A stretch of DNA of 64,000 nucleotides, taken from the sequence record MH051917. One strand, 5' to 3'. The notes under the pieces are model-generated. The model had not been told where the DNA came from and searched no databases. It saw only the letters and a list, made by a program, of their open reading frames with translations. The first letter of the stretch is position 1, and every line of letters begins with the position of its first letter. Of the stretch, positions 9,456 to 64,000 are shown one piece after another. The DNA comes from Enterobacteria phage vB_EcoM_IME341. A program made the position numbers and the translations under genes.

Positions 9456-9664
9456 TGAAAATTGAAAGTTTACAAGATTTCCAGCGTATCATTGGTGAAG
9501 CCTGTACCGGCTACCACAAATACTTGCTTGACGACCAAATGGCTTGTCTCGAAGAAGGTGAAGTACAGTATGCAGCCCAACGCCTTGAACAAGTGAAAGA
9601 GTTTTATCCTGTATTGGTAGAAATTTGTTCAGCTGCTGGAAAACTTACCCCATTCCAAGAATAA
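9455..9664 (+). CDS. hypothetical protein
   Basis: in-frame ATG 9455 overlapping previous stop. Confidence 0.45.
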   Translation: MKIESLQDFQRIIGEACTGYHKYLLDDQMACLEEGEVQYAAQRLEQVKEFYPVLVEICSAAGKLTPFQE

Positions 9665-9668
9665 AGCA

Positions 9669-9698
9669 GTTTACATCTCCTGTAGACATGATACTATA
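9669..9698 (+). promoter_or_regulatory. early promoter upstream of regB
   Basis: GTTTACA -35, TG-n-TACTAT -10; spacer pairs with downstream SD. Confidence 0.6.
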
Positions 9699-9725
9699 AA
9701 CCTATCAACTACAGGAGATTACAAA

Positions 9726-10184
9726 ATGTCAGAAATTAATTCAGAAGTATTCATCCGCCGCAACAAATTACGTCGTCAGTTCGAAACCGAATTCCGTGAA
9801 CTGAATGCGTCCATCAAAAAAGCCGCCATTAAGAGCGGTGTCCCAGCCTTCTTTATTAAGTACTCTAATCACTTGTTGGACCGTGCTATCCAACGTGAAA
9901 TCGACGAAAAATACGTTTTTGCTTTATTCAAGCAACTCCATAACCATGTTAAAGAAATCCACGAATTCTTAATCCAGGAACCTCTGCCTGATGTAGAATC
10001 CGAAATTGTCCCTGGTAAAGTGTATCGTCCATTGCGTCTCGAAATTACCGATAAAACCTTATGGCTAGGTATGACAGTAGACCGTAAACATCCTGATAAA
10101 GGATATTCCCTTAAATGTCGTATGGCATTTGTTAACTCTAAACGTTTAGAAGGTAAAACCAGCACTAAAGTAATCTATCTTTAA
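9726..10184 (+). CDS. regB: RegB site-specific endoribonuclease
   Basis: 152 aa; EVFIRRNKLRR...HLLDRAIQREIDE matches T4 RegB. Confidence 0.85.
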   Translation: MSEINSEVFIRRNKLRRQFETEFRELNASIKKAAIKSGVPAFFIKYSNHLLDRAIQREIDEKYVFALFKQLHNHVKEIHEFLIQEPLPDVESEIVPGKVYRPLRLEITDKTLWLGMTVDRKHPDKGYSLKCRMAFVNSKRLEGKTSTKVIYL

Positions 10185-10196
10185 TAATGAGGTCTC

Positions 10197-10736
10197 ATGA
10201 AAAAAGTATTAGCCACTTTACTATTGACAGTTAGTATGTCTGCCCATAGCGTAGAGCCTACTTTCAGTAATGAACAACTCGATAATTTACATTACGCGTA
10301 TGCTTTCGGTGAACAATACCAAAAGTCGGGAAAGTTCAAAGAAAACCCTAATCAAAAAGGATTAGGATATATCATGGCCGGATTACTATGGCAGGAATCA
10401 TCCGCCGGAATTAATCAAGGTTTAAATAAAGATAAGCACCATGCTTATGGCATGTTCCAAAATTACTTGCCTACGTTAAGAAGTCGTGTTCAACAGGTAG
10501 GTTGGAAGATGTCAGACAAAGAAATAATTCGTATGGTCCAAAAACGACAGAACAGTGCCTCTTGGGCCTACATTGAGCTGTCTTATTGGATTGATGTTCA
10601 CAAAGGTGACCTGAGAAAAGCGATTGCTTCTTATAATGCGGGCTGGAACGTCAAAGCAGGCAGTAAGTATGCTTCTGAAGTTCTAGAAAAGGCCAATTAC
10701 CTAAAATCTAAAAAGATGTTTGAGGCGGTATATTAA
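10197..10736 (+). CDS. secreted lytic-transglycosylase-like protein
   Basis: signal peptide MKKVLATLLLTVSMSAHS; LLWQESSAG SLT-like motif; T4 vs.1 position. Confidence 0.55.
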   Translation: MKKVLATLLLTVSMSAHSVEPTFSNEQLDNLHYAYAFGEQYQKSGKFKENPNQKGLGYIMAGLLWQESSAGINQGLNKDKHHAYGMFQNYLPTLRSRVQQVGWKMSDKEIIRMVQKRQNSASWAYIELSYWIDVHKGDLRKAIASYNAGWNVKAGSKYASEVLEKANYLKSKKMFEAVY

Positions 10737-11093
10737 ATGATTAAGCAGATGACTATAGCGCTTATGTTGATCGCTCCGGGAGTATTAGCGTCACAAGTTG
10801 ATGATAGCAATAATTCAATTGTTGAGTATGCTACCCGCACAGCAAAAGATTATTGTCATCCAAGTAATACTGAATGCGTTATCGAATTCAGTTCAAAAAT
10901 CACAGCGGCTTTTAAAGATGGACAGAACGACGTAGAGCATCGCAGAATGAAAGAGAAAACTCTTTCTAAAAGGTACGAGCAACGTCTAAACGTTACTGAA
11001 TGTGTTCCATCTGATAAAAAGTACAAAGAAATGTGTGCGTCTATGGTAGACAGACTCGTTGACTCATACAACCGAGGATTAAACTCTAAATGA
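10737..11093 (+). CDS. secreted Cys-containing protein (T4 vs position)
   Basis: signal peptide; 118 aa; position of T4 vs. Confidence 0.45.
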   Translation: MIKQMTIALMLIAPGVLASQVDDSNNSIVEYATRTAKDYCHPSNTECVIEFSSKITAAFKDGQNDVEHRRMKEKTLSKRYEQRLNVTECVPSDKKYKEMCASMVDRLVDSYNRGLNSK

Positions 11094-11557
11094 TTATTGA
11101 TTATATTAAGGGCGATATAGTCGCCCTGTTTCTTCAAGGTAATAATGTTGCACACGGGTGCAATTGTTTCCATACAATGGGTTCAGGTGTAGCCGGACAA
11201 TTGGCTAAGGCTTATCCGCCTATTCTCGCTATCGATAAAACCACTTATTTAGGTGGGGTAGAAAAACTTGGCACGTTTACCCAAGCCACAGGTAATAATG
11301 GCCAAATTTGCTATAATCTTTATACGCAATACGAACCTGGCCCTAATCTTGATTATGGTGCTTTAGTAAACTGTATGATAGAATTAAACCGTACCGCAAA
11401 GGGTCTTTTGTTTAAACCCAGAATTTATATTCCTCGCATCGGTTGTGGTATTGCTGGTGGTGATTGGGACAAGGTTTATCAATTGATTAATTTGTTTACT
11501 CCTGATATTAATTTAGTGGTGGTAGATTATGAAAGCCCATTACCCACATCCGTTTGA
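11090..11557 (+). CDS. macro-domain protein (ADP-ribose binding/processing)
   Basis: GDIV...HGCNCF...MGSGVAGQ and ...IPRIGCGIAGGDW match macrodomain motifs. Confidence 0.6.
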   Translation: MIIDYIKGDIVALFLQGNNVAHGCNCFHTMGSGVAGQLAKAYPPILAIDKTTYLGGVEKLGTFTQATGNNGQICYNLYTQYEPGPNLDYGALVNCMIELNRTAKGLLFKPRIYIPRIGCGIAGGDWDKVYQLINLFTPDINLVVVDYESPLPTSV

Positions 11558-11741
11558 CCCTAAAAACAAAGCGGAAATTATTCGACGCTGGACCGAAACC
11601 CGAGTAACCAAATGTCCTATAAAAAGTCAACACAACACCGATAAATGGTATATCGGTGAATACGTTGAATATACTTTTATAGATAAAAATAAACGTAAAC
11701 ATCATGTAGAAGAATATTGCTTAAAGGTGCAATGGCTATGA
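11529..11741 (+). CDS. hypothetical protein
   Basis: 70-aa ORF overlapping end of macro gene. Confidence 0.4.
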   Translation: MKAHYPHPFDPKNKAEIIRRWTETRVTKCPIKSQHNTDKWYIGEYVEYTFIDKNKRKHHVEEYCLKVQWL

Positions 11742-11923
11742 GTCTGAGTAAAGAACAGAAAGATAAATTGTTTGAGCTTATCCATGAGCTTTTGGATGAG
11801 CATACAGAAGCAAACGCCTTTTATGATGAATACGGTCCAATAGATGCCGAACATCAGGAAGAATTTGCCAATCGATTTGATGAGAAAGAAAATGAATTAA
11901 TAGCTTATGTAAATAGTCTTTAA
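11732..11923 (+). CDS. hypothetical acidic protein
   Basis: in-frame ATG 11732; 63 aa. Confidence 0.45.
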   Translation: MAMSLSKEQKDKLFELIHELLDEHTEANAFYDEYGPIDAEHQEEFANRFDEKENELIAYVNSL

Positions 11924-11932
11924 GAAGGTAAT

Positions 11933-12505
11933 ATGGCCCAACTTTATTTTCACTACGCAGCAATGAATTCCGGGAAGACCGCTTCATTGCTAACAGCCGC
12001 TCATAACTACAAAGAACGTGGTATGGGCGTACTTCTTTTAAAGCCTGCGATAGACAATAGAGAATCAAGCCATAGCATTTCGTCTCGTATAGGGATTAGC
12101 CAAGAGGCTAATGCAGTGACTCCAGATATGGACCTATACGAGTTCTATCGTTGGGCTGAATCTCAAAAAGATATCCACTGCGTGTTTGTGGATGAAGCAC
12201 AGTTCTTAGAACCAATACAGATAAAACAACTGGCAAAGATAGTAGACAATTATAATGTTCCAGTTATGTGCTATGGGCTAAGAACTGATTTTCAGGGTAA
12301 ACTGTTTCCTGGTTCTGCTGAATTACTCGCTACAGCAGATAAACTCGTTGAGTACAAAGGTGTGTGCCATTGTGGACGTAAAGCTACTATGACGGCTCGT
12401 ATCCAAGATGGTATCGCAATTAAGGACGGTGACCAAGTTTCTATAGGTGGCAACGATTCTTACGTGTCATTGTGCAGGAAGCACTGGATAGAAATAACGA
12501 GTTGA
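11933..12505 (+). CDS. tk: thymidine kinase
   Basis: MAQLYFHYAAMNSGKT P-loop start and C-terminal Cys cluster typical of Tk. Confidence 0.9.
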   Translation: MAQLYFHYAAMNSGKTASLLTAAHNYKERGMGVLLLKPAIDNRESSHSISSRIGISQEANAVTPDMDLYEFYRWAESQKDIHCVFVDEAQFLEPIQIKQLAKIVDNYNVPVMCYGLRTDFQGKLFPGSAELLATADKLVEYKGVCHCGRKATMTARIQDGIAIKDGDQVSIGGNDSYVSLCRKHWIEITS

Positions 12506-12512
12506 GGGTACT

Positions 12513-12791
12513 ATGGACCTAAATTCAAAGATTTTAATTCTAGCGTTCGCTGTGGCTATTTCTTATATTGTTCTTTCGCCTATCATGGATGATGTGGCTT
12601 ACAAAAGAGAGATAGAGGTTGTAGCAGCGACGTATAATGCTAATAATAAAGAATGCCCTAATAAAAATGGGATGGATTTAATTAAAGCGCATTATATGCT
12701 TTCCATTACCTCGCCTATACAGAGGAATTGGGTTGAATATAATTTTAACGACGTGTTCTATTCTTATTGTCGTAAGCTTAAAAAGCTATAA
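12513..12791 (+). CDS. hypothetical membrane protein
   Basis: 92 aa with N-terminal hydrophobic helix; T4 rI.1 position. Confidence 0.5.
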   Translation: MDLNSKILILAFAVAISYIVLSPIMDDVAYKREIEVVAATYNANNKECPNKNGMDLIKAHYMLSITSPIQRNWVEYNFNDVFYSYCRKLKKL

Positions 12792-12794
12792 ATA
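12787..12794 (+). promoter_or_regulatory. putative late promoter upstream of rI
   Basis: exact TATAAATA, about 90 nt upstream of rI ATG. Confidence 0.35.
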
Positions 12795-12883
12795 ATAATA
12801 CTAACCGTAGAGCTTTAGCTTTTGGTAATCGCTATCGGTTAAGGCCGAAAGGCAAATAGTATAAAACAACAAAGGACATTTGT

Positions 12884-13177
12884 ATGGATATTTTCCGTAC
12901 AGCGGCTTGTATCCTTATGGCGGGATGTTTAGGCCCTTCAGTTTCACTAGCAAATGATACCAATGATAAATTGATGGACGCGTTTGCTAGTAGTGCGATG
13001 CCTGTTTATGCGCAAATGAGTAGACCCAGCGTAAAAGCCTCCGAAGATTATTGGGCCTATGTTACGGCTTCCTGGAAGAATTCAAGTTGTCGGACTATAG
13101 AAGCGTGCTCAATTGAAGGTCGTGCCATCGGAGAGCGTTATGCAAAACTAATGAAGGTAGAAGATGAAATTCAATGA
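12884..13177 (+). CDS. rI: lysis-inhibition regulator rI
   Basis: 97 aa, N-terminal signal anchor; C-terminal CSIEGRAIGERYAKLM resembles T4 RI. Confidence 0.7.
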   Translation: MDIFRTAACILMAGCLGPSVSLANDTNDKLMDAFASSAMPVYAQMSRPSVKASEDYWAYVTASWKNSSCRTIEACSIEGRAIGERYAKLMKVEDEIQ

Positions 13178-13547
13178 TTTCGTACCCGGTCGAGGGTCTG
13201 AAGTGGATTCTTATATTGGTTGGCTACTGGTTTCTTTAGCCTATTTTAAGTCAGCCCATTTAGAAACCAAAAGCTATGCAAGACACAAAGCGTATGACTT
13301 CTATTATGTAGAAGTTCAAGGACCTCTGGACCAATTTAGTGAGCAATATCTTGGATTCAGTGGCAAAGAATATAAAGCATCATTACCGTCTGCTTCAGAC
13401 TTGCCTAAGGACCCTGTAGATTTCCTTGATGAGCTTCTTAAAGCAACTGATAAAATCTATGGCACTCTTCCTAAGGCCATCCAGTCGACTTTGGACGATA
13501 TCACTGGCGTCTTTTACCAGACTAAGTATTTGCTGACGTTAGAATAA
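13164..13547 (+). CDS. hypothetical protein
   Basis: 127-aa ORF overlapping rI stop; followed by intrinsic terminator. Confidence 0.5.
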   Translation: MKFNDFVPGRGSEVDSYIGWLLVSLAYFKSAHLETKSYARHKAYDFYYVEVQGPLDQFSEQYLGFSGKEYKASLPSASDLPKDPVDFLDELLKATDKIYGTLPKAIQSTLDDITGVFYQTKYLLTLE

Positions 13548-13552
13548 TCAAA

Positions 13553-13578
13553 GGTCTCACTTCGGTGGGACCTTTTTT
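13553..13578 (+). terminator. intrinsic terminator
   Basis: GGTCTCAC-TTCG-GTGGGACC hairpin plus T6. Confidence 0.7.
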
Positions 13579-13587
13579 CGTTTAGGT

Positions 13588-13617
13588 GTTTACATCCTCT
13601 AGGAACATGATACTATA
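13588..13617 (+). promoter_or_regulatory. early promoter
   Basis: GTTTACA -35, TG-n-TACTAT -10, conserved GACCTATCAA downstream. Confidence 0.6.
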
Positions 13618-13644
13618 GACCTATCAACTAATGAGGAAAACAGT

Positions 13645-13881
13645 ATGAAACTTACAAGTACTACGGTTTCATTAGAATATGAAATCAACGGTCGTATCCT
13701 TGAGATTAAGATATTCGACGACCGAAGTATCTTTGCCGATTATCGAGGATACAGAATTCGTCTGGAAAAGGACGAGCTCAAGGAACCGTGGCTCCTTAAA
13801 GACACATTAAAGGGTTGTGGGTGTAAACTGAAAACCACCCAAGCCCAAGAATTAATTTCTACTATCAACAAATACTGGTGA
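13645..13881 (+). CDS. hypothetical protein
   Basis: first ORF after early promoter cassette at 13588. Confidence 0.5.
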   Translation: MKLTSTTVSLEYEINGRILEIKIFDDRSIFADYRGYRIRLEKDELKEPWLLKDTLKGCGCKLKTTQAQELISTINKYW

Positions 13882-36510: not shown

Positions 36511-36529
36511 AGGGACTTCGGTCCCTTTT
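36511..36529 (+). terminator. hairpin/terminator upstream of gene 43
   Basis: GGGAC-TTCG-GTCCC hairpin plus T4. Confidence 0.5.
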
Positions 36530-36587
36530 GGAGTATAATGATTCATCAACAAACAAAAGACAATCACTCGTCTATAAAGGAAATGAA

Positions 36588-39299
36588 ATGCAAGAATTCT
36601 ATTTGACAGTCGAACAAATCGGTGATAATATTCTCGAACGTTACATCGATAAAAATGGTAACGAACGTAGTCGTGAAGTTCCTTACAAGCCCACAATGTT
36701 TATGCATGCCAATCCAGAGCAAGCCGTAAAATACATTGATATCTATGGTAAGGGTTGTGTTAAGAAAGAATTCGACTCTATGCGCGATGCATCCCAATGG
36801 ATGAAACGTATGGACGATATGGGTCTCGAAGCCCTGGGTATGGACGACTATAAATTAGCCTATTTGTCTGATACCTATCGTAAAGAAATCAGGTATGATT
36901 CTTCTAAGATTCGTATTGCTAACTTCGACATCGAGGTAACATCTCCTGATGGATTCCCTGAACCAGCTCAGGCTAAACATCCTATCGATGCCATTACCCA
37001 CTACGACTCGATTGACGATAAATTCTATGTATTCGACCTTTTAGTTTCGCCTTATGGTACCGTCGAAGAGTGGTCGATTAAAATCGCTGAGAAACTCCAA
37101 GAAGAAGGTGGTGACGAAGTTCCACAAGAAATCATTGACAAAATCGTTTATCTTCCGTTTAATTCCGAAGAAGAAATGATGCTTGAGTATCTGAATTTCT
37201 GGCAACAGAAAACTCCTGTGATTTTGACTGGATGGAACGTTGAGTCGTTTGACGTACCATACGTTTATAACCGTCTGAAAAATCTGTTTGGTGAGAACAC
37301 TGCTAAGCGATTAAGCCCGCATCGTAAGACTCGTGTTAAAGTTATCGAGAACATGTACGGTGCTCGTGAAATTATTACATTGTTCGGTATCTCTGTTCTA
37401 GATTATATCGACCTGTATAAAAAATTCAGCTTTACCAACCAGCCTTCTTATTCTCTGGATTATGTTTCTGAATATGAATTGAAAGTAGGTAAGTTGAAAT
37501 ATGATGGTCCAATCTCCAAGTTACGTGAGACTAACCACCAACGATATATTTCCTATAACATTATCGACGTATATCGTGTAGTGCAGATTGATATGAAACG
37601 CCAGTTCATTCTTTTGAGTTTGGACATGGGTTATTATGCTAAGATGCAGATTCAGTCGGTGTTCAGTCCAATTAAGACTTGGGATGCTATTATCTTTAAT
37701 AGCCTTAAAGAACAAGGCAAGGTCATTCCGCAGGGTCGTTCACACGTGGTCCAACCTTATCCTGGTGCTTTCGTTAAGGAACCTATTCCTAACGCTTACA
37801 AATATGTAATGAGTTTCGACCTTACATCTCTGTACCCGAGTATCATTCGACAAGTGAATATAAGCCCAGAGACCATCGCAGGGACATTCGCTAACGCACC
37901 TATACATGAATATATTGCCGGAACAGCTCCGCGTCCTAGCGACACCTACAGTTGCTCTCCTAACGGCATGATGTACTATAAAGACCGTGAAGGTGTGATT
38001 CCGACAGAAATCACTAAGGTGTTCTTACAACGTAAAGAACATAAAGGTTATATGCTTGCAGCCCAACGTAATGGTGAGTTAATTAAAGAAGCATTAGAAA
38101 ATCCTAATCTCTCGGTTGATAGTCCACTGGATATCGATTATCGTTTTGACTTCTCTGACGAAATCAAAGCCCAGATTAAAGCACTGTCAGCGCCTTCTTT
38201 AAGAGAAATGTTGAAGAAAGCCGAGCTCACTGAAGTTGCAGGTAATACGGCTCAGATTAACCGTAAGTTGCTTATCAACTCCCTTTATGGTGCACTTGGT
38301 AACGTATGGTTCCGTTACTACGACCTCAGGAACGCAACTGCAATCACACTGTTTGGTCAAATGGCCCTCCAATGGATTGAACGTAAGGTTAACGAATATC
38401 TGAATAGCGTGTGTAAGACTGAAAACCAGAAGTTCGTGCTCTATGGTGATACTGACTCCATTTATGTTAAGGCAGATGCAATCATCAATAAAGTAGGTGA
38501 AGATAAATTCCGTGACACTAACCACTGGGTCGACTTCTTAGATAAATTTGCACGTGAACGTATGGAACCGGCTATTGATGCAGGCTTCCGTGAGATGTGC
38601 GAGTACATGAACAACAAACAACACTTGATGTTCATGGACCGAGAAGCTATCGCAGGTCCTCCACTTGGTTCTAAAGGTCTTGGTGGATTCTGGACAGGCA
38701 AGAAACGTTATGCACTGAACGTTTGGGACATGGAAGGTACTCGTTATGCCGAACCACACTTGAAAATCATGGGCCTTGAAACTCAGAAATCAAGTACGCC
38801 TAAAGCGGTTCAGAAAGCTCTGAAAGAATGTATCCGTCGTATGCTTCAGGAAGGCGAGGCCTCTTTGCAAGAATATTTCAAACAGTTTAATAAGGAATTT
38901 AACGAACTAAACTATGTAAGCATTGCAGCAGTATCCAGTGCTAACAACATTGAGAAATATAACGAAGGCGGATTCCCTGGTTCTAAATGCCCGTACCATA
39001 TCAAAGGTTGCTTAGCTTACATGCGTGCTTCTGCAGGTGATTTGACTATGCCTCGTATCGTTGATGGTGAAAAGGTATATGTACTGCCACTTAAAGAAGG
39101 CAACCCGTTTGGTGAAGCCTGTATGGCATGGCCGTCAGGTATTGAACTTCCAGTTCAGATTCGTGACCAAGTCCTCCGTTGGATGGACTACAACGTACTG
39201 TTCCAAAAGACCTTTATCAAGCCTCTGACTGGTTTTACTGAGTCCGCTAAAATCGACTACGAGAAAAAAGCAACATTATTTGATATGTTCGACTTTTAA
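36588..39299 (+). CDS. 43: DNA polymerase gp43 (family B)
   Basis: exo FDIE and pol YGDTDS motifs; colinear with T4 gp43; start at in-frame ATG 36588. Confidence 0.97.
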   Translation: MQEFYLTVEQIGDNILERYIDKNGNERSREVPYKPTMFMHANPEQAVKYIDIYGKGCVKKEFDSMRDASQWMKRMDDMGLEALGMDDYKLAYLSDTYRKEIRYDSSKIRIANFDIEVTSPDGFPEPAQAKHPIDAITHYDSIDDKFYVFDLLVSPYGTVEEWSIKIAEKLQEEGGDEVPQEIIDKIVYLPFNSEEEMMLEYLNFWQQKTPVILTGWNVESFDVPYVYNRLKNLFGENTAKRLSPHRKTRVKVIENMYGAREIITLFGISVLDYIDLYKKFSFTNQPSYSLDYVSEYELKVGKLKYDGPISKLRETNHQRYISYNIIDVYRVVQIDMKRQFILLSLDMGYYAKMQIQSVFSPIKTWDAIIFNSLKEQGKVIPQGRSHVVQPYPGAFVKEPIPNAYKYVMSFDLTSLYPSIIRQVNISPETIAGTFANAPIHEYIAGTAPRPSDTYSCSPNGMMYYKDREGVIPTEITKVFLQRKEHKGYMLAAQRNGELIKEALENPNLSVDSPLDIDYRFDFSDEIKAQIKALSAPSLREMLKKAELTEVAGNTAQINRKLLINSLYGALGNVWFRYYDLRNATAITLFGQMALQWIERKVNEYLNSVCKTENQKFVLYGDTDSIYVKADAIINKVGEDKFRDTNHWVDFLDKFARERMEPAIDAGFREMCEYMNNKQHLMFMDREAIAGPPLGSKGLGGFWTGKKRYALNVWDMEGTRYAEPHLKIMGLETQKSSTPKAVQKALKECIRRMLQEGEASLQEYFKQFNKEFNELNYVSIAAVSSANNIEKYNEGGFPGSKCPYHIKGCLAYMRASAGDLTMPRIVDGEKVYVLPLKEGNPFGEACMAWPSGIELPVQIRDQVLRWMDYNVLFQKTFIKPLTGFTESAKIDYEKKATLFDMFDF

Positions 39300-39301
39300 G
39301 T

Positions 39302-39331
39302 GTTTACATACCACAAGGAACGTGGTAGTAT
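39302..39331 (+). promoter_or_regulatory. early promoter upstream of imm
   Basis: GTTTACA -35 (overlaps gene 43 stop) and TG-n-TAGTAT -10. Confidence 0.5.
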
Positions 39332-39362
39332 CCTTCCTATCAACTACTTAGAGGAAATTACA

Positions 39363-39599
39363 ATGGAAGCTTTAATCGTTAGTGCTGGTGTTTTAGGATT
39401 TGGTTCTCTGGTTATTATGTTCATCGGTTACTTTTTACCATGGATTTTAGCTCTTCTGCGAGGCACTCGTAGTAATGTAGGAATTTTCTTCCTTAATCTC
39501 CTGTTGGGTTGGACGATGATTGGTTGGGTAGTGGCTTTAATCTGGGCTATCGTCGCTGAACGTAAATCAAACGCACAAATCATTATCGTTAAGCAATGA
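39363..39599 (+). CDS. imm: superinfection immunity protein (Imm-like)
   Basis: 78 aa, two TM helices; position immediately after gene 43 as T4 imm. Confidence 0.55.
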   Translation: MEALIVSAGVLGFGSLVIMFIGYFLPWILALLRGTRSNVGIFFLNLLLGWTMIGWVVALIWAIVAERKSNAQIIIVKQ

Positions 39600-39733
39600 A
39601 AATAATTATTTTATTTCTTATAATGGCTGCCTTTACCGTTTATTGGGCAGTGGCAATTCCGCCAATGATTCCGACACTAATCATCGGATGGATTATTCTT
39701 ATAGCACAAATTAAGTATAACTGTTTTAATTGA
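39596..39733 (+). CDS. micro-ORF, membrane peptide
   Basis: 45 aa hydrophobic, ATGA overlap with imm stop; not in ORF track. Confidence 0.3.
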   Translation: MKIIILFLIMAAFTVYWAVAIPPMIPTLIIGWIILIAQIKYNCFN

Positions 39734-39740
39734 GGATATT

Positions 39741-40241
39741 ATGAAAAAGTTAATTATCGCAATGAGTATACTCCTATCAGGTTGCGCGGCCCAATATGGT
39801 GATGCAGTTTCAGCCGATGAAGTTGGTAAAGCTCGTATCGCAGCTGAACAGAAACAATTCGATGGCGAAATGAAATTCCGTGCAGGTTCTGGACTTGTGT
39901 ATACCCGAGCTAATAATCAATGCGGTAATAACTGTGCAAAATATGCTCAAAGGGAAATCGAATTCCAACGTGAACAAGAGTCTAAGCGTGAAGCGGTACT
40001 AGCCAAACACCAGGCAGAAATGAAGCGCCAAGATGATTTGTACAAAAAGCAGAAACTGTATGCGATGTGCGTAAACCATATCAATCTACAGATTTCTATC
40101 CATGAGGCTCGTTATTACGAAATGCTCGAAACCGAGAGCTTCGATAAAGCCCGTGATTATAAGAAACAAATCAATAAGCTCAAGACCAAAGTACCGGCGG
40201 CAATAGAACAGTGTATTGAAATCGGTAAAGATAAGATTTAA
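39741..40241 (+). CDS. lipoprotein
   Basis: signal peptide with lipobox LLSGC; 166 aa. Confidence 0.55.
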   Translation: MKKLIIAMSILLSGCAAQYGDAVSADEVGKARIAAEQKQFDGEMKFRAGSGLVYTRANNQCGNNCAKYAQREIEFQREQESKREAVLAKHQAEMKRQDDLYKKQKLYAMCVNHINLQISIHEARYYEMLETESFDKARDYKKQINKLKTKVPAAIEQCIEIGKDKI

Positions 40242-40301
40242 GCAATACCAATTTATTAAAAATAGTGTATAATGTACCTACATTCACTTGAGGAACAGAT
40301 A

Positions 40302-41975
40302 ATGAAAAAGGTTGTTATTTTAGGCGCAGGTCTTGGCTCACGGTTGTATCCAATTACTAACGAAATCCCGAAGGTATTGGTTAACTACAAACAACATACT
40401 GTATTAAAACATTTGTATGATTTGTATAGTAACCAATCGGATGAAATTATTCTGGTTATTCACAGCAAATTTAACGACCTCGTTAAAGGCTATATTAAAT
40501 CCATTAACATGATTAATAGTGATAAGCCTAAATTCACTATTCGTAACGTAGATGTGGCTAATGGTTCAGCTCATGCTATTGATTGCATTGCCGAAGATAT
40601 CATCGGGCACAATGTCTTGTTTAACTGGTGTGATATTATTCCTGAAGGTTATAAAGTTGAGTGGGATAACGACTATTGCTATACCTACGGGACTGACTGT
40701 CGTTTTACATTTGAAGAACCGTACTTGCGTGAAATTGGTACCGGTGGTGGCGTAGTTGGCTTGTATCAGGTGGCTAATTGGACAGGTTTTAACGGTCTGT
40801 ATTATGGCGAAGACCTGGCCGACAACCTGGATTCAATGGTCCATTTGACCGAACGTAAGCTAGACTTTGTAGTTGATGTCGGTGACAAACTGAAACTGGC
40901 TAAGGCCCATGAAGAATCTGAAATTAACCGTGAATTTAATAAATTAGAGTTCACTGAGAATCTGGCTATTAAAGTACCTACCAACGAATTAGGTAAAGAA
41001 ATCCAATCTAAAGAAATCAATTGGTATAATTCTATTGATTCTGAATTTGTTCCGAGCATTGTAGACTTTGCTCCAGGTGAATTCATTAAAATGGAACGTA
41101 TCTTTGGTCGTACTATGGCAGATGCCTATCGGTTTATGTCTAAAGAAACTAAAGTCCTCATGGTTTATAAGGTCATTAGTGCATTACGTTCATTCGGTGG
41201 AACTATCGATAATCCATCCGATGAGCAATGGTATTCCGATGTTAAGAAAGAAGTATTGGACAAGGTCCTTATTCGTAATGCTTCTATTGCCGGATTGATT
41301 GAAGGCTTTGCTCCACAGGGCATTACCCATGTCAATGACTTTAAGGTAGGCGACCCTGAAAAACTTCTTCGCCATGCACTAGAAATTCTGTCTGAACATA
41401 AAGAACCGTACCAACTTATTCATGGCGACCCGCACTACAGTAATATTATGTTGTCGGACGAAGGTGATATTAAAATCATCGACCCACGTGGTTATTTTGG
41501 TAATAGTTCTAAAGGCCCTGCGATTTATGACGAAGCTAAAGTGCTTTATTCTATCGATGGTTATGACAAATTTAACTCTGACCCTCTATGGGGCGGCTTA
41601 ACTCGTAACGGAACTCGTGTATTCGTTGATATTGAAAAGGTTATGCCTTTAGACGATATTCCGATGTGTACATTTAAGCACAAGCTCTGGATTGCTGTTA
41701 TCTGGATGGCATTGGCAGGTTACTTTAAAAATAACCCTCTGAAAGCTCTGGGTGCTTATTACAACGGGTTGTACCAACTGAGTGTGCTGCTTAAGCGGCA
41801 TCCTCGTAAGCGTAAGCTTATCACAGGTGAATTTGTCGATGAAGTTCGTGACCCTATCACGGCTCAAATTATCACTCGTTGTCCTGATAAGTGGGTTTTG
41901 CTTGACCAAGAAACTGGTGTAAAATATAAACCTACAGGTTCTACTGAACTCCACAAACAATGGAAGAAAATTTAA
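40302..41975 (+). CDS. bifunctional nucleotidyltransferase / APH-fold kinase
   Basis: N-term ILGAGLGSRL (sugar-phosphate NTase); C-term HGDPHYSNIM and IIDPRG (APH/choline-kinase-like). Confidence 0.65.
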   Translation: MKKVVILGAGLGSRLYPITNEIPKVLVNYKQHTVLKHLYDLYSNQSDEIILVIHSKFNDLVKGYIKSINMINSDKPKFTIRNVDVANGSAHAIDCIAEDIIGHNVLFNWCDIIPEGYKVEWDNDYCYTYGTDCRFTFEEPYLREIGTGGGVVGLYQVANWTGFNGLYYGEDLADNLDSMVHLTERKLDFVVDVGDKLKLAKAHEESEINREFNKLEFTENLAIKVPTNELGKEIQSKEINWYNSIDSEFVPSIVDFAPGEFIKMERIFGRTMADAYRFMSKETKVLMVYKVISALRSFGGTIDNPSDEQWYSDVKKEVLDKVLIRNASIAGLIEGFAPQGITHVNDFKVGDPEKLLRHALEILSEHKEPYQLIHGDPHYSNIMLSDEGDIKIIDPRGYFGNSSKGPAIYDEAKVLYSIDGYDKFNSDPLWGGLTRNGTRVFVDIEKVMPLDDIPMCTFKHKLWIAVIWMALAGYFKNNPLKALGAYYNGLYQLSVLLKRHPRKRKLITGEFVDEVRDPITAQIITRCPDKWVLLDQETGVKYKPTGSTELHKQWKKI

Positions 41976-42334
41976 TGCATCTGTGTTTTGATATCGATAA
42001 CACAATCACGGTTTGGAACCACGACCGTGATTATGAAAACTTTAAACCGGACACCGAAATGGTGTCCATGATTAATAAGCTTTATGACGAAGGTTATGAG
42101 ATTACACTGTTCACTGCTCGTGGCATGACTTCATGTGGACCCGGTCGAATCTTGGTTGAAGTAGTTCCTGCATTGGTTAAGAACCTTGAAAAGATTGGAT
42201 TGAAATATCATAATCTGCTTACACACAAGCCGAGTTATACTTTTATCATCGATGACCGAGCAATCCGTCCTGACCACTTTAAAGAAATGGTTCGTGAAGG
42301 AACTCTTGAAACCTATAAGGCATATCATCCGTGA
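41975..42334 (+). CDS. HAD-superfamily phosphatase-like protein
   Basis: FDIDNTI (DxDxT motif I) and FIIDDR (motif IV); TAATG overlap with upstream gene. Confidence 0.5.
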   Translation: MHLCFDIDNTITVWNHDRDYENFKPDTEMVSMINKLYDEGYEITLFTARGMTSCGPGRILVEVVPALVKNLEKIGLKYHNLLTHKPSYTFIIDDRAIRPDHFKEMVREGTLETYKAYHP

Positions 42335-42867
42335 AACCAAAAATCATTGTTATCGACGGCCCGGATAATTCCGGGAAGTCTACTTTAATTGAATCACTTT
42401 TATCTGATAAGAAATATCGTCTTATTGATTTTCCTAAAAAGATTAATGGCAAATGCATTTCATTAGGGACTGATAATGACAAGGCTTTAGTCGAGACGTT
42501 GTATAAGTTTTTAGACCCTAATTTCGTTTACATCCTCGACCGTGGTTATCCAAGTAATATAGTTTACTCAGGATTCCTTCGTGGTGAAATGGACCCTTAT
42601 GTGGAACTAGCAGATTGGATTGATTTCAAAAAAGAATTCAATATCATTGAGATTATTTTAACCCGTAATCCGTTGGATAAAGACTTTGAAGATGACCTCA
42701 TTAAACTGACTAAAGATGAGTTCAACTTAACTATTCAGAAATATGAAGACTGTTTTAAAAATGTTTTTAAAGTTTTAAACCATGACGGACATAATAACTT
42801 GCTTAACGTCGATATGGTAGAATTAAAACGTCTGAATGAATATATTGAAAATAAGGTGAATAAATGA
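42331..42867 (+). CDS. P-loop kinase (thymidylate/dNMP-kinase-like)
   Basis: VIDGPDNSGKST Walker A; apparent GTG start overlapping upstream stop (GTGA). Confidence 0.6.
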   Translation: MKPKIIVIDGPDNSGKSTLIESLLSDKKYRLIDFPKKINGKCISLGTDNDKALVETLYKFLDPNFVYILDRGYPSNIVYSGFLRGEMDPYVELADWIDFKKEFNIIEIILTRNPLDKDFEDDLIKLTKDEFNLTIQKYEDCFKNVFKVLNHDGHNNLLNVDMVELKRLNEYIENKVNK

Positions 42868-43562
42868 AACACATTACCGCTGTTAGTTTTGAAAACGCGT
42901 TTAAGCAAATGAACGAAGAAATCCTGGAAGCTCCACAGTTTGCAGTTGATTCTCGTATCGGCCGTTGTTATGAAATTGGTTCTGCTTCGGTAGAAGTACT
43001 GGATGCAAGCACTTACAAATTCACCGATCCCCGCATTAATCGTATCAACTATGATTATGCCGAATCTTTCTGGAAATTTATGATTTCTGGTGGTACTGAT
43101 GCCGCCGAAGCATTTAAGGAATATCCTAATGTTGCTAAGTTCATTGATAAGCCGAAAAGTGACGTATTGCCTGCAAACTTCAACACTTTCTATGGACCTC
43201 GAATTGTGGCCCAACTCCCAGCCCTACTTAAAGAGCTTAAAGAAAAGCCTAACTCGCGAAGAGTTGTGTTCCAGATTCTCCAAGAACAAGACCAAGCCCT
43301 CCTTGATTCTGACGAATCCTTAGAATATCCGTGTACCGATTCGGTAACATATTATATTCGTGATGGACGTCTGTATGCACACACTCATATGCGTTCACAG
43401 AACTGTGCTATCGTTATGCAGCTGGATTTCTATCTGCAGGGTAAACTGATGGCCTTTATTGCTGAACAGTGTGGTGTTGGTCTGGGTACGTATTCCCATA
43501 CTATGGTTAGTGCACATGTATTTGAACGTGATTTTGACTACGTTCGAGGATTCCTGAAATGA
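42864..43562 (+). CDS. 42: thymidylate-synthase-family pyrimidine hydroxymethylase (gene 42 homolog, divergent)
   Basis: PNSRR, catalytic Cys in YPCTDSV, HMRSQN; pattern closer to T4 gp42 than to ThyA. Confidence 0.7.
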   Translation: MKHITAVSFENAFKQMNEEILEAPQFAVDSRIGRCYEIGSASVEVLDASTYKFTDPRINRINYDYAESFWKFMISGGTDAAEAFKEYPNVAKFIDKPKSDVLPANFNTFYGPRIVAQLPALLKELKEKPNSRRVVFQILQEQDQALLDSDESLEYPCTDSVTYYIRDGRLYAHTHMRSQNCAIVMQLDFYLQGKLMAFIAEQCGVGLGTYSHTMVSAHVFERDFDYVRGFLK

Positions 43563-44452
43563 GTCTGTTTATCGTTCCTATTTTCAGTATGCGTAGTTAC
43601 GAAACAGGTGAATATGCCGTCCTTAAGGACGGTAATTTTCAACTCCATTTAAACCGTGCTTGCCCAGGTGATTATCTGGCTTATCCTAGAAATTCGAGCG
43701 ATATCAAAGAATGTATTGAATTGTTTCCTGAACTGAATTTTGTACCGCTTTGGTATAAAGAAAATGCTTATGAAACCCGTAAACATTTTTGGTCTGAAAA
43801 TGAGTTCGTTGTTGATTCGCTAATCGAATACTATGACTGCTCAGGATTAGTAACCGATATCACAGGTTATGATGGTGCTCAGACAGTACAATTCAACTTT
43901 AACATTACAATGGACCCTGAAGTTCCTCGTTATTATATTGATGAGTTCATTGATATCGATGTGTCTTCGGTTGAACGTTCGATTTATACTACAGTCCTTA
44001 ACCAATGCCAGAAAGACGTCCTGGTGTCACGAGGTGCGTCCTCTGATAAGATTTTTGTAGACCAAAAGGTAATTAATCCTGCAATAATTGAGCGTTACTC
44101 TGAAGGTCTAGCGCCTATTAAAATTGATGGTATTTTCCATCCATTCCGTATCTCTGATAAATGCTATCAATTCGAAAGAGTTGTAGACCAAGCTGCGGCT
44201 GAAGGTTCTCGTCTTTACATCACCGATCCGAATGATTCATTTAAGCGTGAAGACTATCGTCCTGATGTAGAGATTATTAAATTCAAACCGAGTAAGGTTG
44301 AATATTATCAGATTCTGAAATCAAGACCTCATATCATTTATCATGAGAATCCTGGTTTAGTATTCCATCCTGGTCTAGCTGAATTCATTTATTTCGGTGC
44401 CCATATCCATTCTGAGTACGAAATGCCGAGTTATGAGGACGTAGTATGCTAG
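43559..44452 (+). CDS. hypothetical protein in beta-glucosyltransferase position (candidate DNA-modifying transferase)
   Basis: 297-aa ORF, ATGA overlap with gene 42 homolog; no similarity to T4 beta-gt recognised. Confidence 0.5.
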   Translation: MSLFIVPIFSMRSYETGEYAVLKDGNFQLHLNRACPGDYLAYPRNSSDIKECIELFPELNFVPLWYKENAYETRKHFWSENEFVVDSLIEYYDCSGLVTDITGYDGAQTVQFNFNITMDPEVPRYYIDEFIDIDVSSVERSIYTTVLNQCQKDVLVSRGASSDKIFVDQKVINPAIIERYSEGLAPIKIDGIFHPFRISDKCYQFERVVDQAAAEGSRLYITDPNDSFKREDYRPDVEIIKFKPSKVEYYQILKSRPHIIYHENPGLVFHPGLAEFIYFGAHIHSEYEMPSYEDVVC

Positions 44453-44654
44453 GTCCTTTATTGCTTTTTATAGGTTTGTTATTATTCTCTTTCGGAGCCT
44501 TGTTATTATTATGCTGGCTCGAGAAACGAGAAGTCCGGAAGATAGTCGATAAGGCTATCAACCGAGGAATAAAATAACGCTGTAAATGTGAAGTGATATA
44601 ATTACCCTATCTTAAAACGTGAGTAAAATATAATGGTGCCTATGGAAAAATATA

Positions 44655-45836
44655 ATGTCCGATTTAAAATCCCGTTTGATTAAAGCTTCTACTTCTAAAA
44701 TGACTGCCGACCTGACCAAATCTAAATTGTTTAATGGTCGTGACGAAGTTCCTACTCGTATCCCTATGCTTAATATTGCATTAGGCGGTGCATTGAATGC
44801 AGGCTTACAATCAGGTTTGACAATCTTTGCTGCTCCATCTAAACACTTTAAAACGTTGTTTGGACTTACCATGGTTGCGGCATATATGAAGAAATATCCA
44901 GACGCAATTTGTTTGTTCTATGACTCTGAGTTTGGTGCTTCAGAATCTTATTTCCGTTCGATGGGTGTTGACCTGGAACGTGTGGTTCATACACCAATCC
45001 AGTCAGTCGAACAGCTTAAAGTTGATATGACCAACCAGTTAGAAGAAATTACTCGCGGCGAAAAGGTTATTATCTTTATCGACTCCATTGGTAACACTGC
45101 TTCTAAGAAAGAAACCGAAGATGCTTTGAACGAGAAAGTTGTAGGTGATATGACTCGTGCTAAGTCACTGAAATCTCTGTTCCGTATCGTAACACCTTAT
45201 CTGACCATCAAAGATATCCCTTGTGTAGCAATTAACCACACGGCTATGGAAATTGGTGGAATGTATCCTAAAGAGATTATGGGTGGTGGTACTGGTATTC
45301 TGTACTCTGCTTCTACCGTGTTCTTTATCTCTAAACGTCAGGTTAAAGATGGTACTGAGCTCACTGGTTATGACTTCACACTGAAGGCTGAGAAATCTCG
45401 TACGGTTAAAGAGAAGTCAACGTTCCCTATCACCGTTAACTTTGAAGGCGGTATCGACCCGTTCAGTGGATTGCTTGAAATGGCTACTGATATCGGCTTT
45501 GTCGTGAAACCTAAAGCTGGTTGGTATAATCGTGCATTCCTTGACGAAACCACGGGTGAAATGGTTCAAGAAGAAAAAGCATGGCGTGCCAAAGCTACCG
45601 ATTGTGTTGAGTTCTGGGGACCTCTGTTTAAACATGCCCCGTTCCGTGAAGCAATCGAGAATAAGTATAAGCTTGGTGCAATTAATTCTATTAAAGAAGT
45701 TGACGATGCAGTGAACGACCTTATTAACTCTCGTGTCTCTAAGAACGTTGCTGTTAAATTAGGCGGAAATACCCAAAGCGCCGCTGACATCGAAAGCGAT
45801 TTAGAAAACATGAATTTTGTGAGCGACCATGACTGA
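44655..45836 (+). CDS. uvsX: recombinase UvsX (RecA-like)
   Basis: 393 aa; MSDLKSRLIKASTSK... strong match to T4 UvsX. Confidence 0.95.
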   Translation: MSDLKSRLIKASTSKMTADLTKSKLFNGRDEVPTRIPMLNIALGGALNAGLQSGLTIFAAPSKHFKTLFGLTMVAAYMKKYPDAICLFYDSEFGASESYFRSMGVDLERVVHTPIQSVEQLKVDMTNQLEEITRGEKVIIFIDSIGNTASKKETEDALNEKVVGDMTRAKSLKSLFRIVTPYLTIKDIPCVAINHTAMEIGGMYPKEIMGGGTGILYSASTVFFISKRQVKDGTELTGYDFTLKAEKSRTVKEKSTFPITVNFEGGIDPFSGLLEMATDIGFVVKPKAGWYNRAFLDETTGEMVQEEKAWRAKATDCVEFWGPLFKHAPFREAIENKYKLGAINSIKEVDDAVNDLINSRVSKNVAVKLGGNTQSAADIESDLENMNFVSDHD

Positions 45837-51266: not shown

Positions 51267-51788
51267 ATGGCACACTTTAATGAATGTTCACAACTTATTG
51301 CTGGTGTTGATAAAGCTGAGAAAGCTTATTTTAATGCTCTGATTCACGAAGATAAAGACCCTCTGCAGGTTATGCTTGATATGCAGAAATCATTACAGGT
51401 CCGTTTGGCTAAAGATAAACCTGAATATAACCGTCATCCTGATGACTTGGCTACTGCAGGTGAAGTTGTTGATTGGTTGCGCAATCAGAAAGATTATATT
51501 GATGATGAATTCCGCGAACTTCTGACTTCTCTTGGTGGCATGAGCAATGGCGAAAAAGATGCGAGCGCTGTATGGAAGCCTTGGAAAGCTCAACATGCTG
51601 AACGTCGTGAAACCCTGATTAACGATTTGTCTCCTGAAGACCAGCTCGAAATTAAATTCGAAATGATTGATATTCTGCACTTTGTTCTGAATATGTTCCA
51701 AGGCCTTGGACTGACTGCTGAAGAAATCTTTAAGTTGTATTACCTGAAAAACGCTGAGAACTTTGCTCGTCAAGACCGAGGTTATTAA
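51267..51788 (+). CDS. 56: dCTP pyrophosphatase gp56 (MazG-like)
   Basis: 173 aa; MAHFNECSQLIAGVDKAE...EIFKLYYLKNAENFARQDRGY resembles T4 gp56. Confidence 0.85.
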   Translation: MAHFNECSQLIAGVDKAEKAYFNALIHEDKDPLQVMLDMQKSLQVRLAKDKPEYNRHPDDLATAGEVVDWLRNQKDYIDDEFRELLTSLGGMSNGEKDASAVWKPWKAQHAERRETLINDLSPEDQLEIKFEMIDILHFVLNMFQGLGLTAEEIFKLYYLKNAENFARQDRGY

Positions 51789-63421: not shown

Positions 63422-63464
63422 TAAATATGTATGGTACATGAGTGCCATACAATTAGGAGACTTT

Positions 63465-63617
63465 ATGAGAAAGTACTGGATAACGCTAGCCACCGGTGAA
63501 TTTGGATATCTCTGGGCTGAGAAGAGACCTTTGTTCGCAGAGTACGTGACCATTATGGTAGAAACCTGGGAAGGCGAATTTTATCAAGTTCGAGGACAAG
63601 TCTACAAAATTGAATAA
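63465..63617 (+). CDS. hypothetical small protein
   Basis: in-frame ATG 63465 after SD AGGAG. Confidence 0.35.
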   Translation: MRKYWITLATGEFGYLWAEKRPLFAEYVTIMVETWEGEFYQVRGQVYKIE

Positions 63618-63621
63618 TTAA

Positions 63622-63639
63622 GGGCCGCAAGGCCCTTTT
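63622..63639 (+). terminator. intrinsic terminator
   Basis: GGGCC-GCAA-GGCCC hairpin plus T4. Confidence 0.55.
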
Positions 63640-63643
63640 CGGG

Positions 63644-63668
63644 GTTTACAACATAACAAAACTATGAT
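63644..63668 (+). promoter_or_regulatory. putative early promoter
   Basis: GTTTACA -35; -10 (TATGAT) at sub-optimal spacing. Confidence 0.35.
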
Positions 63669-63690
63669 AGGATTATCTAGAGGTGAGAAT

Positions 63691-64000
63691 ATGATTATGC
63701 AAGATAACAGTATAGTGAATACTGGCAACCTGGCTTTATCCTTTATGGAAACGGCTATTCGTAACTGTAAAGATGAAGGAGTAGTGACTACAAGCGGCAA
63801 GGGGCTCGAATACTTAAAGGCTGTAAAATCTATTGCCTTAAAGATTAAAGATAACCAGGCGCTCTCTCCTGTGGTCCAGGAAAAGGTTTTAGAGATAATG
63901 TATCGCCACAGAGAGCACAAAAGTACAATGGGTTCTATGAGAAGAATTCTGGCTGAACTTGGTTCTACCAGAGAATATGTTCAACATGAGATAGTTAAAA
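63691..64000 (+). CDS. hypothetical protein (partial; 3' end outside window)
   Basis: ATG 63691 after SD GAGGTGA; open to window edge. Confidence 0.45.
   Translation, partial: MIMQDNSIVNTGNLALSFMETAIRNCKDEGVVTTSGKGLEYLKAVKSIALKIKDNQALSPVVQEKVLEIMYRHREHKSTMGSMRRILAELGSTREYVQHEIVK

Follow-up and report, generated by a model that had tools for sequence, protein, structure and literature searches.

A five-gene Dhakavirus cassette predicted to direct replacement of cytosine with arabinosylated 5-hydroxycytosine

Introduction

In phage RB69 and the Acinetobacter phage DLP3, the DNA contains 5-hydroxycytosine that bears one to three arabinoses, with the sugar ether-linked directly to C5 (Lee et al., NAR 2026, PMC13326640), and the mono-arabinosylated nucleoside (mono-arabinosyl-5hodC, m/z 376) is reported for both. 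The RB69 modification has been revised from arabinosyl-hydroxymethylcytosine (hydroxymethylcytosine, hmC) to arabinosyl-5-hydroxycytosine (PMC13326640, PMC13390438), the second, independent paper confirming the revised structure in a Mosigvirus (PMC13390438). Here we describe how a cassette of five genes, at positions 40302-44452 of a DNA stretch of 64,000 nucleotides from Enterobacteria phage vB_EcoM_IME341 (record MH051917; the whole stretch is called the window below), compares with these systems.

Thymidylate synthase (TS) homologues put the hydroxyl on dCMP using O2 and flavin, and the substitution D169N was proposed as the diagnostic residue of 5-hydroxy-dCMP synthases and validated on nine further enzymes (Lee et al., PMC13326640). 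The product, 5-hydroxy-dCMP (5hodCMP), was shown to be phosphorylated by the RB69 gp1-type dNMP kinase (Lee et al., PMC13326640). The route to the sugar donor comes from work on phage HY126 (He et al., Nat Chem Biol 2026), to the extent that it is summarised in PMC13326640: the fusion protein AfhE turns arabinofuranose-5-phosphate into the 1,5-bisphosphate, the HAD phosphatase AfhF takes off the 5-phosphate, and AfhE later forms UDP-arabinose, so that the route runs from arabinose-5-phosphate through arabinose-1,5-bisphosphate and arabinose-1-phosphate to UDP-arabinofuranose. Lee et al. cite He et al. (2026) and Mahler et al. (2025) for the biochemistry and biology of the pathway. The system is already known, and Dhakaviruses are named in print among eleven further clades with a syntenic cluster (Lee et al., PMC13326640); as early as 2010, JS98-type phages were noted to have a gene 42 allele and no glucosyltransferase (PMC2993671).

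Results

An RB69-type cassette in a Dhakavirus

The cassette very probably encodes, in its Dhakavirus form, the phage pathway by which O-arabinosylated 5-hydroxycytosine takes the place of cytosine in virion DNA. The grounds for this assignment in the window are homology, signature residues, folds, gene content and synteny, and the enzyme activities are taken from papers on the RB69, DLP3 and HY126 homologues. All five genes have homologues in RB69, which supports the view of the initial annotation that they form a DNA-hypermodification cassette, and its suggestion that a kinase, a nucleotidyltransferase and a phosphatase together make up an NDP-sugar route agrees with the AfhE/AfhF work as summarised in PMC13326640. 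The same annotation had contrasted the cassette with RB69-type relatives and had called its chemistry unknown; the cassette is instead the RB69-type system, gene for gene, and the second statement is out of date, as the pathway has been published. From these comparisons we infer the host origin of arabinose-5-phosphate, the addition of a single arabinose, DNA as the acceptor and the role of the second nucleotide kinase discussed below.

Megablast placed the window in Dhakavirus, the JS98/Bp7/KIT01-type T4-like coliphages, and the Bp7 genome is collinear with it. Five open reading frames (ORFs) had been proposed for the cassette, and all were found at their coordinates on the + strand with each of the quoted motifs in the translations (ILGAGLGSRL, HGDPHYSNIM, IIDPRG, FDIDNTI, FIIDDR, VIDGPDNSGKST and YPCTDSV). 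In megablast, the DNA of the cassette shares 96.6% identity with KIT01 and 93-96% with Bp7, QL01, WG01, IME08 and JS10. The block is kept at 93-97% DNA identity across 50 phage records, and homologues of its proteins occur in 355-372, so the five ORFs are not due to chance. The proposed overlap coupling was confirmed, with overlaps of 1-4 nt: TAATG (41973-41977) joins the first gene to the second, which overlap by 16 nt if the second starts at 41960, and is followed by GTGA (42331-42334) and by ATGA at both 42864-42867 and 43559-43562.

Identity of the base

The fourth gene (42864-43562, + strand, 232 amino acids, aa) is assigned as a 5-hydroxy-dCMP synthase, that is, a TS-fold dCMP 5-hydroxylase. 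Its earlier placement in the TS family with the catalytic cysteine retained holds (PF00303, Thymidylat_synt, 52.6 bits against a cut-off of 24.3; C146 kept), and the protein also matches MilA and ThyA structures by sequence. It matches PDB 9iqu/9iqc/9ir2 with an E-value of 1.5e-125; a tblastn search matched the 9iqu sequence at 100% identity with phage HY126 (PP658200). HY126 is a Mosigvirus, and its enzyme shares 98.7% identity with that of RB69. The identity of the window protein is 79% to HY126 and 78-79% to RB69 gp48, as compared to 25.6% to T4 gp42.

We aligned the protein (MAFFT, E. coli ThyA numbering) with E. coli ThyA, the true thymidylate synthase of Bp7, T4 gp42, RB69 gp48 and the HY126 enzyme. 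Residues C146, E143, N169, D177, A80, V173 and F209 are the same as in RB69 gp48 and HY126 (L143E, D169N, N177D, W80A, G173V and Y209F), whereas T4 gp42 has D143, D169, D177, W80, G173 and Y209. The window protein hence combines the catalytic C146 with the dCMP-specifying N177D, carries the published diagnostic D169N together with L143E, and lacks the D169, the W80 and the close similarity that would mark it as a gp42 (N169, A80, 25.6%). The D169N signature and the 79% identity to the HY126 hydroxylase, which has been crystallised, indicate that the base is 5-hydroxycytosine and not hmC, and hydroxymethylated DNA, the acceptor supposed in the initial annotation, is very unlikely on this sequence evidence. 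Flavin-bound, O2-dependent formation of 5hodCMP is accordingly the predicted activity of the window enzyme.

Enzymes of the sugar donor

The first gene (40302-41975, + strand, 557 aa) encodes a predicted bifunctional sugar-phosphate kinase/NDP-sugar pyrophosphorylase of the AfhE type, with a nucleotidyltransferase in residues ~1-230 and a kinase of the APH/choline-kinase fold in residues ~231-557. Both fold calls made earlier were correct (Pfam NTP_transferase, 34.3 bits against a cut-off of 21.2; APH, 25.9 bits against 23.2), and this domain order is the AfhE-type architecture. An alternative ATG at 40272 would give 567 aa; the start at 40302 is favoured because a GAGG lies 8 nt upstream, the ATG at 40272 falls inside a TATAAT hexamer and residue 1 of RB69 gp53 aligns at 40302. 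In a translated search the fusion is 43% identical to RB69 gp53 and 41% to gp52, with homology along the full length of both halves; gp52 and gp53 are one gene split by a sequencing error, for which IME08 gp43 served in 2018 as the full-length model (PMC6024577). The closest relatives are in Klebsiella Marfavirus (80%) and Proteus Bragavirus PM2 (72%). The predicted structure is confident and matches 4y7t, 1jyk and the glucosamine kinase 6hwj, while Lee et al. list 4y7t, 1jyk and the glucosamine kinase 6hwl as templates of the RB69 fusion (PMC13326640). Arabinose-5-phosphate as substrate and UDP-arabinofuranose as product are predictions from this homology.

Three metagenomic proteins (P0185, P0196 and P0204; 922-946 aa) join HAD, SIS, nucleotidyltransferase and kinase domains in one chain, and their SIS domain is 32% identical to the RB69 arabinose-5-phosphate isomerase (E 4e-25), which ties the fusion family to arabinose-5-phosphate. 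At one metagenomic locus (14-2854), the gene for such a four-domain chain is followed by a sulfotransferase gene, and many two-domain homologues of the fusion lie on contigs of >300 kb that are probably bacterial.

The second gene (41960-42334, + strand, 124 aa; alternative start 41975, 119 aa) encodes a small HAD phosphatase of the AfhF type, predicted to remove the 5-phosphate from arabinofuranose-1,5-bisphosphate. It had been called a minimal HAD phosphatase at 41975-42334; the family stands and the start does not, since the alignment with PDB 9iqw begins at residue 3 when the longer version is used, which favours 41960. Besides 9iqw, from the phage HY126 series (E 7.8e-54), it matches 1xpj (E 2e-12), and it is 63% identical to RB69 gp51 in a translated search, with FDIDNTI as its DxDxT motif. 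These motifs and the homology to 9iqw and gp51 place it in the AfhF type; the match to the NCBIfam capsule-biosynthesis phosphatase TIGR01689 (1e-14) is under the family cut-off, and the Pfam HAD match is sub-threshold.

Glycosyltransferase and second nucleotide kinase

The fifth gene (43559-44452, + strand, 297 aa) encodes a glycosyltransferase (GT) of the GT-B fold, homologous to RB69 gp46:47 ("arabinosyltransferase 1"). The translated search gave 70% identity to gp47 and 65% to gp46, which are in reality one gene (PMC13326640), and as in that system the gene lies directly 3' of the hydroxylase gene, with an ATGA overlap. The protein had been described as having no recognisable resemblance to T4 beta-gt, and indeed the best BLASTP E-value is 0.6; it does not qualify as a T4 beta-glucosyltransferase homologue, the GT-B superfold alone being common. 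Searches of Pfam, NCBIfam and PDB sequences gave no match. The question whether the fold was GT-B or GT-A was settled by a confident predicted structure, which is GT-B and whose top matches are all Leloir glycosyltransferases; among them is 6kih, the same template that Lee et al. give for the RB69 enzyme (PMC13326640). The predicted role of the 297-aa protein, by homology, is the transfer of arabinose from UDP-arabinofuranose to 5-hydroxycytosine.

The third gene (42331-42867, + strand, 178 aa, GTG start) encodes a thymidylate-kinase-like (TMK-like) P-loop nucleotide kinase. The earlier call was sound as to the Walker A motif (GPDNSGKST) and the DR motif, which are TMK-like; the family scores are sub-threshold (Pfam, 15.3 bits against a cut-off of 27; NCBIfam dTMP kinase, 19.3 against 83), so the protein is not Tmk itself, and the NCBIfam CMP-kinase score is far under its cut-off. 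It matches phrog_761 at 4e-40, is 37% identical to RB69 gp45 and 81% to the Marfa homologue, and had no useful match in a PDB sequence search. It may phosphorylate the modified dNMP, as the initial annotation suggested; in RB69, the gp1-type kinase acts on 5hodCMP, and Bp7 has a gp1 too. None of the five cassette proteins scored above any NCBIfam family cut-off.

Proposed pathway

These assignments suggest a pathway with two branches. Outside the cassette, the dCTPase/dUTPase gp56 (51267-51788, + strand; 91% identical to RB69 gp56 over 173 aa) would convert dCTP to dCMP and so remove dCTP. The TS-fold enzyme would hydroxylate dCMP at C5 with flavin and O2 to 5hodCMP, which a gp1-type dNMP kinase (encoded outside the window) and the host NDP kinase would turn into 5hodCTP, and the phage polymerase would incorporate it. 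In the other branch, the kinase domain of the fusion would phosphorylate D-arabinose-5-phosphate at C1, the HAD phosphatase would take off the 5-phosphate, the N-terminal nucleotidyltransferase domain would make UDP-arabinofuranose, and the GT-B enzyme would move one arabinose to the 5-hydroxyl. As the phage lacks an isomerase, host KdsD/GutQ would be expected to supply the arabinose-5-phosphate. E. coli KdsD and GutQ make arabinose-5-phosphate for Kdo, and by a rough estimate the Kdo flux of a few million molecules per generation is comparable in magnitude to the number of cytosines needed (~67,000 in each genome, multiplied by a burst of ~100). The complete Dhakavirus genome of Bp7 carries denA, denB, gp1 and ipI, as expected where cytosine is fully replaced.

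The smallest version of the gene set

We found no homologue of RB69 p055 (arabinose-5-phosphate isomerase), p050 (U32), p049 or p003 (second transferase) in the window or in the complete Bp7 genome; for p055, there was none at E <= 1. The isomerase is not a strict requirement, as none was found in the loci of Thanatos, Marfa or PM2 that were read either, and homologues of the fusion, the GT and the hydroxylase occur in 366, 355 and 372 records, as compared to 270 for the isomerase and 222 for U32. In RB69, p003 lies between gene 39 and rIIA, and in both Bp7 and the window nothing but small ORFs occupies this slot: after gene 39, positions 63422-64000 hold a ~60-aa ORF and then an ORF running off the window end, corresponding by Bp7 collinearity to a small hypothetical protein and an rIIA.1-like protein. 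Among the versions compared, the Dhakavirus set is the smallest, with five genes, gp56 and gp1. With a single glycosyltransferase, mono-arabinosyl-5-hydroxycytosine is expected, and we predict this product, made from host arabinose-5-phosphate. The Shewanella phage Thanatos shares this core, with no isomerase in the 17.7 kb of its locus, and has been described as mono-arabinosylated with a single arabinosyl-GT (Lee et al., PMC13326640).

Comparison with the described systems shows how the set is assembled. The window shares with the Mosigviruses (RB69 gp45-gp55 and gp3; the HY126 Afh genes, PDB 9iqu, 9iqw and 9iqz) the five functions at 37-79% identity, and with RB69 the position between gp43 and uvsX, the TS signature and the support genes gp56 and gp1. 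Unlike RB69, it lacks the four genes named above, has gp43 separated from the cassette by imm and a lipoprotein gene, and carries the TMK-like kinase gene between those for the phosphatase and the hydroxylase, whereas in RB69 it follows the GT gene. Thanatos (TH1_060 to TH1_063 and neighbours; 41-71% identity to the window proteins) likewise combines a fusion, a HAD phosphatase, a TMK-like kinase and an upstream imm with one GT-B gene that immediately follows the TS homologue, but it carries a chorismate mutase and a U32 gene besides. Klebsiella Marfavirus and Proteus Bragavirus PM2 share the fusion-HAD-kinase order and the absence of an isomerase from the gp43-uvsX region, but keep the U32 gene (83-89% identical to that of RB69), PM2 together with a chorismate mutase. 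The DLP3 cluster (gp76-gp83) resembles the window in its hydroxylase, first GT, TMK-like kinase, HAD phosphatase and fusion and in having no U32 gene, and differs in its isomerase and its three glycosyltransferases, which go with tri-arabinosylated bases; Acinetobacter homologues of the window GT are ~50% identical. T4, with gp42, alpha-GT and beta-GT, uses the same genomic slot and the same logic, in which a TS-fold enzyme modifies dCMP, a GT-B enzyme adds the sugar and gp56 and gp1 assist. However, in T4 glucosyl-hmC the group at C5 is a hydroxymethyl added via folate, as opposed to a hydroxyl added via flavin and O2; the window phage must make its own donor, and its GT has no sequence similarity to beta-gt.

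Within one genus, the Proteus phages PM2 and phiP4-3 differ by a module swap in the gp43-uvsX region: phiP4-3 has an isomerase and an RB69-like fusion, while PM2 lacks the isomerase and its fusion is window-like. Identity between the two fusions is 47.6%, as compared to 95-96% for gp43, the U32 protein and uvsX and 73-87% for the HAD phosphatase, the kinase, the TS homologue and the GT.

Neighbouring genes and signals

On the 5' side, the cassette is preceded by gene 43 DNA polymerase (36528-39299) and imm (39300-39599; Pfam Imm_superinfect, E 8e-18). Two further ORFs lie between imm and the cassette, one for a 45-aa membrane protein (39596-39733; 56% identical to RB69 p054) and one for a 166-aa lipoprotein-like protein (39741-40241; LSGC lipoprotein signal; phrog_1754, function unknown), and these two genes and imm may make up a block for superinfection exclusion. 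On the 3' side come an ORF for a 43-aa hydrophobic membrane protein (44446-44577), which overlaps the 3' end of the GT gene, then uvsX (44655-45836), gene 40 and gene 41. The gap between the GT gene and uvsX (44453-44654) is 202 nt in the window and 77 nt in Bp7, a difference of ~125 bases. It had been stated that T4 carries only gene 42 and beta-gt between imm and uvsX; both are there, but so is segA.

The GC content is 0.34-0.43 in the cassette and 0.36-0.44 in the flanks, so its composition is not anomalous. Upstream of the first gene, a perfect -10-like hexamer TATAAT (40268-40273) and, at 40290-40293, a GAGG ribosome-binding site were read from the + strand; no -35 match was found for the hexamer, and its promoter role is putative. 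Consensus scans were uninformative (20 promoter-like sites against 17.8 expected from shuffled sequence, and one terminator-like site against 3.9).

KIT01/Bp7-type records annotate the cassette genes mostly as hypothetical proteins. Elsewhere in public records the HAD phosphatase is named "phosphoheptose isomerase" (PHROG 1238, RefSeq), the hydroxylase "thymidylate synthase" or "dCMP hydroxymethylase", and the GT, in several records, "RNA polymerase binding protein".

Discussion

Several points weigh against arabinosylated 5-hydroxycytosine as the Dhakavirus product. We found no nucleoside or chemical analysis of any Dhakavirus DNA in the literature searched; the fusion and the TMK-like kinase are only 41-43% and 37% identical to their RB69 counterparts; single glycosyltransferases gave no activity on 5-hydroxycytosine (5hoC) DNA, and either the mononucleotide or DNA could be the substrate of the first arabinosylation (Lee et al., PMC13326640); and the Thanatos GT homologue TH1_063 was reported as a UDP-xylose pyrophosphorylase in vitro (Thanatos paper). 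If that last activity held for the 297-aa protein, which is 51% identical to TH1_063 and alike in position, it would be a UDP-pentose pyrophosphorylase and another protein the transferase. We regard this as very improbable, given its GT-B fold with Leloir glycosyltransferases as top matches, the canonical nucleotidyltransferase domain that the cassette already has, and the fact that homology to RB69 p003 brought up no other glycosyltransferase candidate in the Dhakavirus genome. The acceptor that Lee et al. left open (PMC13326640) gives somewhat more room to an unlikely order of events, in which the acidic GT-B enzyme glycosylates free 5hodCMP, the TMK-like kinase then phosphorylates the glycosylated dNMP, and the sugar enters DNA via the polymerase. 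The kinase, the GT and the TS homologue stay together in distant phages (RL38J1_214-216, Thanatos, RB69), and RB69 gp1 already handles 5hodCMP, so that a second kinase needs another job. The GT family is also acidic (isoelectric point, pI, 4.78 and net charge -19 in the window and a family median of 5.15, as compared to 9.05 for T4 beta-gt and 6.33 for RB69 AraT2), which is weakly compatible with a small-molecule acceptor, although pI is a weak indicator. On the other hand, the characterised T-even sugar modifications are all post-replicative, and DLP3 gp76/77 act on DNA (Lee et al., PMC13326640).

It is improbable, too, that a pentose other than arabinose is attached, for example one derived from ribose-5-phosphate or xylulose-5-phosphate. 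The lack of an isomerase in the window and in the whole Bp7 genome would fit such a sugar, as would the mere 42% identity of the fusion to its Mosigvirus counterpart and the coincidence of isomerase loss with a swapped fusion in Bragavirus (47.6% against 95-97% for flanking genes); the Thanatos authors, moreover, discussed xylose or deoxypentose. However, an identity matrix places the fusions of all phage lineages 42-54% apart, so that this divergence is not exceptional, and 65 alignment columns, catalytic and others, are invariant across the family. The HAD phosphatase and the GT are 63-70% identical to those of RB69, the E. coli host supplies arabinose-5-phosphate for Kdo, and Thanatos is described as arabinosylated, yet no isomerase lies in the 17.7 kb around its cluster. 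The same low identity and missing isomerase had suggested a distinct "type 2" fusion with another sugar, a reading that was downgraded, as the lineages differ to this degree throughout and Thanatos, without an isomerase, has an RB69-like fusion. As for the base, the TS fold, the retained catalytic cysteine, the dCMP-specifying Asp 177 and the gene 42 allele given to JS98 in the older literature (PMC2993671) would all suit a gp42-like dCMP hydroxymethylase, with the sugar on 5-hydroxymethylcytosine. The chance of this is slight in the extreme: D169N, W80A, G173V and Y209F fit hydroxylases and not gp42, the identity is 26% to gp42 as compared to 79% to the HY126 hydroxylase, and the modification of RB69 itself has been revised to 5-hydroxycytosine.

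Beyond the window, a further lead is the U32 gene missing from the Dhakavirus set. Most enteric-phage versions of the cluster carry this gene, as do nearly all versions in phages of facultative anaerobes. Homologues of RB69 p050 are Peptidase_U32 proteins with invariant cysteine motifs, and the gene is the most conserved of the cluster (79-89% identity among E. coli, Klebsiella, Proteus and Shewanella phages; the regions concerned in the loci read are RB69 p050 at 9493-10662, Thanatos at 12428-13818, Proteus PM2 at 9826-12323 and Marfa at 9787-10947). A gene for a type II chorismate mutase lies directly 3' of the U32 gene in Thanatos and between the U32 and hydroxylase genes in two Proteus phages, and one Klebsiella phage record has a chorismate mutase annotated at the U32 match. 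RB69 p049 was considered as a chorismate mutase and is not detectable as one, and a PDB sequence search with p050 gave no useful match. The U32 proteins RlhA, TrhP and UbiU/V are O2-independent, prephenate-dependent hydroxylases, and one of them, RlhA, forms 5-hydroxycytidine in rRNA. The genera listed for the U32 gene do not include Acinetobacter, an obligate aerobe, and U32 is not among the DLP3 cluster genes of Lee et al. (PMC13326640). The same authors do not mention U32, prephenate or chorismate (PMC13326640), and no paper linking them was found in the literature searched. We speculate from gene content that the U32 and chorismate mutase module may be an anaerobic route to 5-hydroxycytosine. 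In that case the cassette of the window, like that of Bp7 without a U32 gene, would be a stripped-down, oxygen-dependent version of the pathway, a possibility that we hold to be doubtful; if true, DNA modification in Dhakaviruses would be poor where oxygen is lacking, and the phages would be conditionally sensitive to restriction in the gut.

The cassette raises no new question beyond those of the 2025-2026 papers. Its small size suggests that E. coli needs to receive no more than five phage genes together with gp56 and gp1. The isomerase, the U32 protein and the second transferase would then be accessories, and such a set would be useful if the pathway were to be transplanted. The five genes in most of the ~50 Dhakavirus records, now labelled "hypothetical", "thymidylate synthase", "thymidylate kinase", "phosphoheptose isomerase" or "RNA polymerase binding protein", can be named from published biochemistry. 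Many type II enzymes are blocked by arabinosylated 5-hydroxycytosine, and protection from type I CRISPR-Cas has been reported for it; RB69 DNA that contains it maps poorly in nanopore sequencing. JS98-type coliphages are predicted to carry this base, which bears on their use in phage therapy and engineering.

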